Program-made: the position numbers and the translations under genes | Notes under the pieces: generated by a model | The model's input: the letters and a program-made list of their open reading frames with translations, nothing else | Told to the model about the DNA's origin: nothing | Database searches by the model: none | In this document: positions 3,606-33,737 of the stretch, one piece after another | Layout of the letters: each line of letters opens with the position of its first letter | Position numbering within the stretch: the first letter of the stretch is position 1 | Assembly: GCA_964016885.1 (NCBI GenBank) | Contig: OZ024751.1 | Span: 35,836,001 to 35,900,000 of the forward strand | Source: Eledone cirrhosa | Lineage: Eukaryota | Length of the DNA stretch: 64,000 nt | Direction of reading: 5' to 3'

Positions 3606-3685
3606 CTATATTAAAACTTTTATACTCTGCTATGTATTGAGTACCTTACTTACTGTGGTTACCTCCGATTCAACCCGGAATAACG
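3549..3685 (+). mobile_element. HHR-bearing non-coding element, family B, inserted in (TA)n
   Basis: HHR plus tail ...ACTCTGCTATGTATTGAGTACCTTACTTACTGTGGTTACC...CCCGGAATAACG, with (TA)n on both sides. Homologs at 22062, 24400 and 50437. Confidence 0.8.
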
Positions 3686-3733
3686 TATATATATATATAT
3701 ATATATATATATATATATATATATATATATATA

Positions 3734-3813
3734 TAGGAACGAGTAGGACCCCGACGGCTGAGCTCAAGCCGTTTCGACGGCTAATTCTGGACTAAAATCA
3801 TTTTAGTCCAGAA
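3734..3813 (-). mobile_element. Family A fragment carrying the 3' half of an HHR
   Basis: Minus strand reads GAAACGGC-TTGAGCTCA-GCCGTC^GGGGTCC, preceded by the hairpin TTCTGGACTAAAAT/ATTTTAGTCCAGAA. Flanked by (TA)n. Confidence 0.75.
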
Positions 3814-4797
3814 TATATACACATATATATATATATTTATATATATATATATATATATATATATATATATATATATATATATATATATACATACATATAT
3901 ATATATATATATACATACATACATATATATATATATATATACGTATATATAATATATATATATATATGCCATTATACGGCACATACACATAATCCAGGTG
4001 TGCGTGTCTTCGTGTAAGTATGAACGCATATACATGTATATACACGTATATACATGTACATACGTGTATATTTGTATAACCGAGAATGAAAGAGAGAGCG
4101 GAGAGAGAGACAGGGTGAGGGAGAAAGGGACAGAGATAGGGTGAGAGAGCGAGAGAGATAGCGAGAGAGAGAGAGAGAGGGAGAGAGAGAGAGAGAGAGA
4201 GAGAGGGGGAGAGAGAGAGAGAGAGAGAGAGAGAGAGAGAGAGAGAGAGAGAGAGAGAGAGAGAGAGAGAGAGAGAGAGAGAGAGATATTACGTTTGTCC
4301 GGTGATGCCCTATGGCACTTGGATTAATAACGTTAGTTGAGAAGTAAATTTTATATGTAAAATCAATGTCGTCTGATCAGTGAATCAAGGTGTTATTGTT
4401 TGTGGAAATATAAGCAGGTGTGTATATTAAGACTGTCGGCTTGTCTGGAATTGTGTGGAGAAGAGGAATTTGTCAACAGTCTGTGGCCGTAGAATCAAAC
4501 GTTTTCGATAATGGCAGAAGGTGTAAGGTGAGCAATATATAGTCGTCATAGTAAAGTGTATTGTATTGAAACTGTCTAAACAGTATGGTAACTCTAATCT
4601 CCAATGTTTAGGGGCAAATTAATAAACCTTTAAAATGAAATCAAGAAGTTTAGTCGAGATACACACTCACACACACACACATACATACATACATATATAT
4701 ATATATATATATATATATATATATATATATATATATATGTATATATATATCACAGAAAAAAAGAGAATCAGTGTTGCGACGAATGTAATTTATTGTA

Positions 4798-4889
4798 CAT
4801 ATTACAATCGTTTCTCTGGCGACCAGCTCGAGGCACGATCGATGTGATGTTCGAAACTGACTCTGAAAATCGCAAGGTCCTCAGATACG
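4798..4889 (-). ncRNA. Type I hammerhead ribozyme with extended stem II
   Basis: Minus strand: CGTAT-CTGAGGA-(~63 nt including GCGATT/GGTCGC)-GAAAC-GATT-GTA^ATATG. The downstream tail contains AATAAA and runs into (TA)n at ~4750. Confidence 0.65.
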
Positions 4890-5264
4890 AGTGCTCATCG
4901 AGTGCTCATACGGCCTACCGCATACGGACGCTTTAAGCATGCAACACCAATTATATATATATCTATATCTATATATATATATATATATATATATATATAT
5001 ATATATATATATATATATTATATAACTCTCACTCACATACACATAGATACACACCCACACACAAACGCACACAGACACACACACGCGAAATATATTAAAT
5101 TAACCAAGTTTTAAAACGAAATGAAGATACATATATATACATATATATATATATATATATATATATATATATATACATATATATATATATATATATATAT
5201 ATAGATACGGACACGAGAATTAGAGCTGAATGTGACGTGATTCGGCTGTATCTATATCCGTGCA

Positions 5265-5352
5265 CTAAATTCCAATGAGAAAGCATTAGTCATTAGGCAA
5301 CCGGAGACTATTGTAGAGAGAAGACACTTGTTGAAGGTGTCATTCAGTGAAA
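5265..5352 (-). mobile_element. Decayed CORE-domain SINE fragment
   Basis: CTAAATTCCAATGAGAAAGCATTAGTC...AGAAGACACTTGTTGAAGGTGTC is similar to 53840-53990 and 63716-63870. Confidence 0.55.
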
Positions 5353-31229: not shown

Positions 31230-31310
31230 AGTAAAAGGTTAGAGCCCGACGACTGAGCTCATGCCGTTGAAACAGCTTCAAGCTTAGCCGTCTAGTACTA
31301 ACTTTCTACT
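31230..31310. mobile_element. Degenerate family A fold-back
   Basis: CCCGACGACTGAGCTCATGCCGTT / GAAACAGCTTCAAGCTTAGCCGTC between TA runs. Confidence 0.7.
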
Positions 31311-31577
31311 ATATATATACTACACTGTTTCCCCAATTACAAAGTACTTAGCTAAACATTGTTTTACTAGTCTAAGCTGGTAACCTCCAACCCCCCTCTC
31401 TCTCTCTCTCTCTGTATATATATATATATATATATATATATATATATATATATATATATATATATATATATATATATATATATATATATATATATATATA
31501 TATATGTGTGTGTGTGTGTGTGTGTGTGTGTGTGTGTGTGTATACACGGTGCTAACACGATCAGCCGCAATCACAAT

Positions 31578-31725
31578 GTGAAGGCGCATGGCTTAGTGGT
31601 TAGAGCATTGGACTTGCAATCGAAAGGTTGTGAGTTCAATTCTCGGACCGGGCGATGTGTTGTTTCCTTGAGCAAGACACTTTATTTCACTTTATTGCTC
31701 CAGTTTACTCAGCTGTAGAACTGAG
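31578..31725 (+). mobile_element. tRNA-derived CORE-SINE (octopus OR2-like)
   Basis: A box TGGCTTAGTGG, B box GAGTTCAATTC and CORE-like TCCTTGAGCAAGACACTTTATTTCAC...ACTCAGCTGTAGAA. Confidence 0.85.
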
Positions 31726-31984
31726 ATGATAGGACTGGGGCCTCTATCATTAAATCACCCAAGACACCTCCAACTAGATATACCTTGGAGGAGGCCAGCT
31801 AAACCTGCATAGGTGTGAGCTGTCACACACAATACAATCAGACACTTAGACACCATTACTAATTATGTATAGACCTTCCCACCTATATATACGGTGAGAC
31901 ATACAAAAAATTAAAAATAACAACACACACATTCACATGTCCCCCTTTTTCTATATAAAAAAAAATTATAATCTATCTACTTTT

Positions 31985-32024
31985 ACTCTTCTGACGAATG
32001 GCTAAACTCCGAAACGTCGATATA
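31985..32024 (+). ncRNA. Minimal Penelope-type hammerhead core with decayed stem I
   Basis: CTGACGA-ATGGCTAAACTCC-GAAACGTC. The flanking stem I pairs poorly. Confidence 0.55.
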
Positions 32025-33608
32025 CTTTTTTCTCTCTTTCATCCAACGCGTGAACCTAATAACACTAATTGTTTTAACATCCTAATGTTTGTCATGTTTT
32101 ATTATAAACGATGTCGTTCGTGGTTCTTAGTTGAGACGCTTATTGATAAACAATCAAGGGAGCTCACTCTAACTTTTATTTCTATAAAACAAACTAATAT
32201 TTAAAGAGACAAATGTATAGGCATTCATAGAATACAGAACTGAACAGGTAAAGAAATGTCTTCTCAAATGGGATTTTATATTTTCATCTGTTGGGATAGA
32301 GTTATGGTTACCATGGAGATGTTTATTAGTTTATTACAGTGATGACGTCACACTAACTCTATTGCTAATTAGATACAATATATTTTGGAATAGAATATGA
32401 ATATATATATATATATTCATATACACATACACACACATATATATATATATATATATATATATATATATATACACACACATATATATATATATATATATAT
32501 ATATATATATATATATATATATATATATATATATATATATATATATATATACACATATATATATATATATATATATACATATATACATATGTAGTTATAT
32601 ATATATATATATATATATATATACATATATAACTACATATGTATATATAGATATATATATATACATATATGCATATCTAAATATATATATATATATATAC
32701 AAATATATATATACATATATATACAAAAATATGTATATGTATATATATATATATATACATAAATATACACACACATACGCACACACACACACACACACAT
32801 ATATATATATATTATGCATACATACATACATACATACATACATACATACATACATTTATATATATGAAATCGAACTTGAAAAGAAACCGTGCTGTATTTG
32901 TATTTAATATTTTCTCTCTACTCGGATCGGGTTAAGCTTTTTTTTAAAGTATGAATCTATACATAGGAGGGCACGGCAGATTAATTCTGTGAACCTATTC
33001 ACTATTTTGGTTTGATGTTTGCTGTATCAAGATCAATAGAGTTTTTTTCCCGTGTGCAAAGAGCAAAGACTAGAGAAAGTGGTGTATAAGTTGTATATAT
33101 GTATAGGAGGCTAATATATGATATTGAGGATAATATTACTTTTGAAAATAAAATACGGACCCCCCCCCCCCCCCCCCAGCCCTACAAAAAAAAAAAGACC
33201 CCAACAAAATAAAACAAACAAACAAATAAACAAATGAAGAGGTCATGAAAAGGGTCAGGCTGAGTAATCTACGGGATATAATATTCAAACGAATCATGTA
33301 AGATGCTCGGCCACCTGTTACAGATGCCCAAGAAAGGACAAGTGGGCGTCAATTTCGAGTAGTTGCTAGAATATACAAATATAGATACAGTCAGCATATT
33401 TTCTTTTCATGTTCGATTTCATACCGCTACACATACATACACATATATATACACCAACACAAACATACACATATATATACACCCACACAAACATACACAT
33501 ATATATACACCCACACACCCATACACTTATATATATATACCCCCCACACATATACACTTATATATACACACATTTATACACTTATATATATATATACACA
33601 TACACCTA

Positions 33609-33737
33609 CATTTTATGTGATAAACTGGTGATATTCCAGTCACAAGACTCCCTATTTAGCCTTAATAAAATGGATATTAACATTCTACTACTGTATTGAG
33701 TACTATGTTCTCTCAGCCGTTAACCACATACGGTTGT
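33609..33737 (+). mobile_element. Third GTATTGAGTAC-type element with a fossil HHR
   Basis: CATTTTAT-GTGATAA-ACTGG/CCAGT-...-TTA^ATAAAATG, then TTCTACTACTGTATTGAGTACT...CGGTTG-(TA)n. Confidence 0.6.

Follow-up and report, generated by a model that had tools for sequence, protein, structure and literature searches.

What do several families of short repeats gain, if anything, from sharing one short sequence? The question is raised by a 64-kb stretch of the Eledone cirrhosa genome (GenBank assembly GCA_964016885.1, contig OZ024751.1, positions 35,836,001 to 35,900,000), which we will call the window; coordinates count from its first nucleotide. It is AT-rich animal DNA that is rich in simple repeats. 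A first-pass annotation described a box, marked by the 11-mer GTATTGAGTAC, in three families of elements with hammerhead ribozymes, and proposed that it is either a cis signal for a trans-acting reverse transcriptase (RT) and endonuclease (EN) or a structural element. On balance, we favor the reading that the box is a predicted small bulged RNA hairpin, which serves as the docking site for an RT/GIY-YIG protein and has been borrowed by non-autonomous families. Both proposals fit at once, as a structured cis element in the tail of a Penelope-like element (PLE), with recognition by the protein as the inferred part. The elements in the window are likely to be non-autonomous, TA-targeting PLEs of the Hydra clade.

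The box is more conserved than its flanks

The window contains 10 exact copies of GTATTGAGTAC and two copies with one mismatch. Shuffling the non-repeat part of the window 100 times gave 0.06 exact copies on average and never more than one. (At up to two mismatches there is no enrichment: 17 found versus 36 expected.) With BLAST within the window, we assigned the 12 box copies to four families: seven in family A, three in B, and one each in B2 and C.

Across 18 box positions, pairwise identity between these families is 89-100%. Between families, the 25 nt on either side of the box are at or near the level of shuffled sequence. The exception is B versus B2 downstream of the box (0.76); these are related families. 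So, families A, B, and C do share a box despite otherwise different tails, and the box exceeds its flanks in conservation, which is the comparison that the annotation had named as able to refute its claim. The coordinates it gave also hold (B at 3624-3644, A at 20106-20131 and 41531-41556, C at 33682-33703). The family C copy departs from its consensus, with ATTC in place of ACTC and a U-G pair in the predicted lower stem. The spacer within the box ranges from 1 to 6 nt among copies. A TA or CA run begins 35-52 nt past GAGT in all 12 copies, close to the 35-50 nt claimed for the TA junction.

The 12 copies are:

3624..3644 (+): family B box, predicted bulged hairpin followed by AC; element 3550-3685 between TA runs
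8709..8734 (-): family A box with bulge UC; element 8661-8882, inverted arm present
20106..20131 (+): family A box; the copy (about 20100-20178) consists of the tail only and has no ribozyme before it
22100..22121 (-): family B2 box; element 22062-22241, with a whole hammerhead in the inverted arm at 22192-22238 (+)
24490..24510 (+): family B box; element 24401-24551, inverted arm present
33682..33703 (+): family C box, one lower-stem pair being U-G; element 33609-33736, whose hammerhead is present as its 3' half
41531..41556 (+): family A box; element 41487-41602, short inverted arm
41695..41720 (-): family A box, 5' strand broken; opposite the 41531 copy, with a TA run between the two
45573..45598 (-): family A box; element 45527-45660, inverted arm present
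50478..50498 (-): family B box; element about 50436-50547
50723..50748 (-): family A box; element 50675-50873, long inverted arm
51772..51797 (-): family A box, lower stem with one mismatch; element 51726-51813

The box can fold as a bulged hairpin

The two halves of the box can pair. In order, they read ACUC, UAC(U), a loop, (A)GUA, a UU bulge, and GAGU, followed by an unpaired AC. The general pattern is RCUC, a variable upper stem and loop, a 2-nt bulge on the 3' side, GAGY, and then AC.

Scanning the window for this pattern, with loops of up to 15 nt, gave 15 strict matches, of which 13 have a TA or CA run 20-62 nt on (chance expectation 0.32, maximum 2, in 60 shuffles). Ten of the 13 are the A, B, and C copies that defined the pattern; the independent matches are family D, with two copies, and family G. 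Once one lower-stem mismatch was allowed, the scan also matched family F (null expectation 0.88). Family G is the weakest of the added families. Their hairpins are:

33781..33803 (+): family G hairpin pattern with a different upper stem, no ribozyme seen; inverted tail copy at 33907-33960
48964..48996 (-): family D hairpin pattern, closed by G-C and with UA as the bulge; TA run 27 nt downstream
49436..49468 (-): second family D hairpin; head-to-head with a tailless arm at 49481-49645 (+), which stops 7 nt short of the hairpin position
59343..59365 (+): family F hairpin pattern; the lower stem has one mismatch, the bulge is CA, and AC follows; 41 nt past the cut, CA run 24 nt on

(A loose match at 4860-4903 has a 28-nt loop and was dropped under the loop limit. 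It sits in a TA-flanked island, 4750-4951 (+), 48 nt before a TA run, and no hammerhead was found there.)

In the seven families, either A-U or G-C serves as the closing pair, each of three upper pairs occurs in three forms, and pairs 1, 5, 6, and 7 change on both sides. With a 2-nt bulge, all 21 upper-stem cells are paired, versus 2-14 with other bulge sizes, although this count is partly by construction. (We counted pairs by script, since MAFFT misaligned the divergent hairpins.) A shuffle test on pairing across families gave 0 of 20,000; since the pattern itself had been used to pick D, F, and G, the test is partly circular. Loop lengths range from 3 to 13 nt.

These compensated changes bear on whether the box is read as RNA or as DNA. 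A GIY-YIG endonuclease might instead see the tail in the cDNA or in a double-stranded intermediate and cut an internal TA-rich site upstream, which would leave a tailless end. The tail of Penelope from D. virilis is needed for endonuclease recognition and plasmid cleavage (PMC11167929), and tails have been ascribed to EN-mediated resolution (PMC8557442). Also, there is a TA-rich stretch before the hairpin in families B, D, and F and in several Hydra entries, and the exact sequence of the A, B, and C boxes is kept beyond what pairing needs. But upper-stem pairs change on both sides and the loop ranges from 3 to 13 nt, neither of which a protein that reads a duplex would need. Also, in B and C the non-canonical pairs take the form G-U when read on the ribozyme strand. 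We therefore regard a DNA signal as unlikely. A hairpin in single-stranded DNA is a possible form of it.

Another explanation needs no selection at all: the families could be mosaics that share a short piece by template switching or gene conversion. The near-identity of the A, B, and C boxes would fit this, and chimeric insertions are known for PLEs (PMC3846280). However, a variable loop splits the two conserved halves, and the pattern is kept with a different sequence in D, in F, and in Hydra elements of other phyla (see below). Also, within family A the stems are less variable than the tail. Among its six whole copies, mismatches number 1/96 in the stems, 5/36 in the loop, and 17/204 in the tail (Fisher p = 0.006 for stems versus loop and 0.016 for stems versus tail). 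We give the mosaic explanation very little chance. In 40 of the 140 rows of differences between reads or contigs and the window, none falls in a stem, which is weak evidence.

Other readings of the box were set aside. Because the spacer varies by 1-6 nt, no reading frame is kept across the box, and this, together with the lack of an RT or EN frame among the 98 of 148 frames scanned, led us to reject a coding origin. By eye, the box is a poor fit to a splice donor (family D lacks GT at the GAGY position) or to promoter boxes with fixed spacing. The box pattern has no match in a collection of viral contigs. Four matches in metagenome contigs appear to be chance: they lie in microbial-looking DNA of normal AT/GC content and lack a ribozyme, a TA run, or likeness to the window.

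The pattern in published Hydra-clade elements

The annotation had suggested looking for the box in the untranslated region (UTR) of an intact PLE. We inspected by eye the six new consensus sequences of the Hydra clade in File S7 of PMC8557442. Three of the six contain the hairpin pattern in full, and a fourth contains it with one mismatch. At the 3' ends of Hydra-2_Amil (from a coral) and Hydra-2_Ajap (from a sea cucumber), the hammerhead is followed by GCUC, an upper stem of 6 or 4 bp, a UU or UA bulge, GAGC, and AC, and the consensus ends about 27 nt after the AC. Hydra-1_Crog, from a copepod, has the pattern with one mismatch in the lower stem. In Hydra-1_Ajap, two pattern hairpins lie at the 5' start, before the ATG, and the consensus ends about 40 nt past the ribozyme; this would follow from a tail that forms the beginning of the next unit. 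So, protein-coding Hydra elements do contain the hairpin pattern, with compensated pairs and in a matching place, but they lack the literal 11-mer.

As a control, we took six 8-mers of the form NN-GAGY-AC, which have 27 matches in the supplement of the same paper. Judged by eye, all four of the matches in Hydra elements fold into the hairpin, versus 1 of 23 elsewhere, in the 3' UTR of Naiad_Mmer. Because the same pattern is present in published PLEs from a coral and a sea cucumber, the hairpin is likely to be a template-recognition signal for the RT.

Hydra elements have (TA)n targets and canonical hammerheads (PMC8557442). The RNA-level mark of the clade, a canonical hammerhead motif near the 3' end, is present in families B, D, and F, as judged by eye against File S2; A and C show its 3' half. 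From Files S1 and S2, we computed by hand the distance from the ribozyme to the end of the consensus in 24 Hydra families, leaving out one family whose ribozyme is at the 5' start. Ten families have a distance of 25-42 nt and 11 have one of 80-148 nt; two are intermediate, and in one the distance is 350 nt. The two classes fit the two element ends that we see in the window.

The position in Hydra-1_Ajap also raises the possibility that the hairpin is a 5' UTR control of the autonomous element (part of a promoter, a translational operator, or an RNA stability signal) that is carried along in the tail. Two copies directly before the ATG are what such a control would look like, and rotifer pseudo-long terminal repeats (pLTRs) contain TATA-like and initiator-like sequences (PMC3846280). 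Against this, several short non-coding families with unrelated flanks retain the hairpin, its distance to the element ends is narrow, and a variable spacer with compensated pairs is ill-suited to a core promoter. A 5' UTR control looks distinctly improbable to us.

Element ends track the hairpin, not the ribozyme

PLEs are described as head-to-head inverted pLTRs with an optional tail at one end, which continues into the start of the body (PMC3846280, PMC8557442). The layout in the window matches: judged by sequence, the elements are non-autonomous PLE derivatives. The usual order is a TA run, an inverted arm, a direct arm, a tail, and a TA run. The inverted arm ends at a fixed proximal end, while the direct arm passes through the proximal end and the box to a fixed distal end. 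We see 5'-truncated copies that have an inverted arm, and a tail at one end, in family A (five copies with an arm), in the family B copy near 24500, in B2, and in D. The 12 box copies, D, and G all end at a TA or CA run, and F ends at a CA run. The copies are 80-460 nt long and lack open reading frames (ORFs), which makes them too short for autonomy. One family A arm stands by itself:

3736..3823 (-): family A inverted arm alone, which stops at the proximal end, with no tail or box

Sequencing reads contain both ends. In DNA-read run X8, the proximal end of family A runs into (TA)n in 1,147 reads, and the distal end does so in about 4,700 (2,131 + 2,576). In run X1, 13,913 contigs match a 445-nt stretch, with depth peaking over the family A box. 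Given these numbers, the families are high-copy, although the depths do not yield a copy number. Runs X4 and X6 (organisms B and C) have 50 and 30 contigs on the stretch, which is too few to study variation.

A predicted complete type I hammerhead is found in families B, B2 (in the inverted arm, 22192-22238), D, E, and F. Those on the same strand as a downstream hairpin are:

3549..3605 (+): family B complete type I hammerhead; stem I of 9 bp, CUGAUGA, GAAA, UA cut site
49162..49243 (-): family D complete type I hammerhead, whose cut site precedes the hairpin by 173 nt
59236..59309 (+): family F complete type I hammerhead

The description of three ribozyme families thus applies to family B but only in part to A and C, which have just the GAAA-stem III-UC half; a motif search of the window found no CUGANGA upstream of it. 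Nor do all copies carry a ribozyme upstream, as had been stated: four family A copies (20106, 41531, about 41697, and about 51774) are not preceded by a cleavage site on their own strand. The proposed distance of 20-30 nt from ribozyme to box is right for A (25-27 nt) and B (26-27 nt) but not for B2 (33 nt) or C (40 nt). On the same strand, the hairpin lies 173 nt past the cut in D and 41 nt in F. Leaving aside B and B2, two of the three well-formed hammerheads (D and F, not E) have the hairpin downstream on their own strand. In family E, a TA run begins about 45 nt past a whole type I hammerhead (20401-20466), and no hairpin is present. The family E element, 20401-20510 (+), may be a tailless arm. 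A weak hammerhead-like match at 45991-46047 (-) has short stems and no hairpin downstream, and is probably chance. Among 150 of the 160 Rfam matches to the window, there was no hammerhead or cis-element family at gathering score; these were sub-threshold microRNA matches, mostly to simple repeats and palindromes, plus one tRNA-like match elsewhere.

The tailless arm ends 8 nt before the hairpin in A, 11-16 nt in the copy near 24500, and 7 nt in D. The tail ends 24-59 nt past the hairpin, while the ribozyme is 25-173 nt away. Because the arm and tail ends stay near the hairpin while the ribozyme distance varies, the element ends track the hairpin. So, we would replace the original description, which placed the box relative to the ribozyme, with a placement relative to the element ends.

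This argues against the idea that the hairpin aids folding or cleavage of the hammerhead, or protects the cleaved 3' product. It is true that the hairpin is always 3' of the ribozyme on the same strand, and lies 25-41 nt from the cut in five of the six measurable families; also, the ribozyme of the Poseidon element PAc requires protein for cleavage (PMC11167929). But the separation of 173 nt in D and the dependence of hairpin position on the element ends would be unexpected for such a helper, and PAc ribozyme mutants still insert in vitro (PMC11167929). A ribozyme helper seems highly improbable.

A candidate signal for template recognition

We propose that the hairpin would fold on the ribozyme-strand RNA and that the RT/GIY-YIG protein of an autonomous partner would bind it on the template. 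The bound protein would use nicked (TA)n DNA to start reverse transcription twice, 24-59 nt downstream of the hairpin and again about 7-16 nt upstream of it. If the two cDNAs were then joined head-to-head, this would give the observed insertions, with a tail on a single arm. The short families would retain only the ribozyme, the hairpin, and the ends, with the protein supplied in trans. By analogy, SINEs keep the end of a LINE (short and long interspersed elements). Twin priming as the origin of the head-to-head insertions goes one step beyond this, and we offer it tentatively.

Several results weigh against this proposal. With energies of -0.6 to -5.4 kcal/mol, the hairpins are weak. The predicted pairing probability differs among copies, from about 0 to 1, and is near 0 in local context for C and for the family A copy at 45573. 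Energy models often favor other folds, the full hairpin is in the minimum-energy structure of none of five whole-element folds, and z-scores are not significant. When A, B, and C are taken alone, a second pairing register is possible, and a covariance model built from them is so sequence-bound that it recovers just those 12 copies and not D, F, or G. Family G lacks a ribozyme, and D and G lack the AC. In B2, exceptionally, the arm ends about 27 nt before the hairpin. As for the published elements, Hydra-1_Amil is only a partial fit, and Hydra-1_Obim, from an octopus, has no hairpin; its consensus stops 29 nt past the ribozyme. Conversely, the 3' UTR of an element outside the Hydra clade, Naiad_Mmer, fits the pattern, with a 6-bp upper stem, a UU bulge, and AC. 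Finally, among the 98 longest complex frames of 148 in the window, no Pfam family scored above its cut-off (we ignored one match below it), so there is no RT or GIY-YIG frame among them, and we infer both the autonomous partner and the clade.

The Naiad_Mmer hairpin may reflect chance or wider use of the motif. The stretch upstream of it is presumably SECIS-like (resembling a selenocysteine insertion sequence). We rejected a likeness between the family B arm and this 3' UTR, which we take to reflect the SECIS-like stretch.

The lizard element PAc offers parallels to the proposed mechanism. Its tail is the stretch bounded by two internal RT start sites, and it cuts and extends both strands of AT-rich target DNA (PMC11167929). 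The PAc protein is predicted to be a dimer, ribozyme cleavage is not needed, and a protein-binding motif has been hypothesized within the first 172 nt of the ORF (PMC11167929). By analogy, the hairpin is probably the Hydra-type counterpart of the PAc binding site. A bolder version, which is possible but which we would not count on, is a clade-wide landing pad, from corals to cephalopods: a dimeric RT-endonuclease on the hairpin would set the two starts and prime both from the two nicked (TA)n strands. If true, this would explain the long-unexplained tail and the head-to-head insertions, and any RNA that carried the hairpin would be sent into TA microsatellites, which would make it a portable tag.

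The elements are ordinary PLE debris; the motif is the new part. We consider it a candidate for a conserved RNA signal in PLE tails, one that varies naturally across phyla with its pairs compensated. We found no description of the hairpin in the titles and the openings of abstracts of the papers listed in literature searches, but subscription papers, Repbase or Dfam, figures, and supplements may hold one. The papers listed in a literature search for the exact 11-mer or its reverse are all unrelated by title. PLE hammerheads have been described, with no mention of a downstream motif in the part available (PMC4209133), and active Penelope families have been counted in Octopus vulgaris (PMC13282606). 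The hairpin addresses how the RTs of PLEs, which are the sister group of telomerase, recognize RNA, and where the tail comes from. The motif is 20-30 nt long, and its natural variants, in which pairs are compensated, come from several phyla and from both coding and non-coding elements; they are a ready mutant set. The motif could also be a handle for classing many short TA-flanked repeats of mollusks as Penelope-dependent.

Other repeats in the window

At 41487-41720 and 33773-33960, same-family tails face each other across one TA run; these long inverted repeats score as false microRNA precursors. A diverged family A palindrome at 31231-31309, in which both arms end at the proximal end, lacks the box. 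Between the B and A copies, at 50551-50660, there is a high-copy short repeat with two palindromes at one end, which is also in runs X1, X4, X6, and X8. Short TA-flanked elements at 24897-25058 and 41974-42068 have terminal inverted repeats that begin with CAGGGTG and resemble miniature inverted-repeat transposable elements. The sequence at 31580-31730 (+) is SINE-like and headed by a tRNA (Rfam tRNA match at 31589-31646). We take it to resemble an octopus SINE.

Comparison with known systems

The stem-loops at the 3' ends of LINEs and SINEs, and epsilon of hepadnaviruses, are small bulged stem-loops that bring an RT to its template, in both autonomous and non-autonomous RNAs. They differ in that they serve other classes of RT, and the window hairpin is internal to the RNA, with a proposed start site on either side.

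Poseidon PAc (Frangieh et al. 2024, PMC11167929; Arkhipova et al. 2013, PMC3846280) shares an optional 3' extension on one inverted arm, palindromic head-to-head joints, two element ends downstream of the hammerhead, and an AT-rich target. In contrast to the window elements, whose tails are about 65-85 nt, its published tail is 30-40 nt. Also, its starts lie in an AC-rich stem-loop, and its binding motif has been bracketed to the first 172 nt of the ORF but not defined.

Non-LTR retrozymes (Cervera and de la Pena 2020, PMC7229834; bioRxiv 10.64898/2026.07.22.740005) are likewise non-coding, have type I hammerheads, and are proposed to derive from the pLTRs of PLEs. However, retrozymes form head-to-tail tandem arrays, while the window copies are dispersed, single or head-to-head in TA runs, and mostly lack a whole ribozyme. 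Without head-to-tail tandem units with whole hammerheads, we rejected this identity.

Naiad PLEs (PMC8557442) share (TA)n targets, inverted 5'-truncated arms, a tail, and presence in octopus. They lack the canonical hammerhead and have an N-terminal EN, whereas families B, D, and F have canonical motifs, so these three do not fit the Naiads. In addition, the supplement of that paper lacks three short motifs of families A and B. On the hammerhead criterion, A and C may still be Naiads.

The Hydra clade comprises PLEs with a C-terminal EN, marked at the protein level by RWK, DKT, a CxCX5C linker, and the lack of CCHH (Craig et al. 2021, PMC8557442). It differs from the window copies, which are 80-460 nt long with no ORF, and the hairpin is not described in the part available. 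The likenesses are (TA)n targets, a type I hammerhead near the 3' end, two classes of 3' end, a stem III in family B that by eye is similar to those of Penelope-1_NV, Hydra-1_aMil, and Penelope-1_SK (File S2), and the bulged hairpin pattern itself, in three or four of the six consensus sequences.

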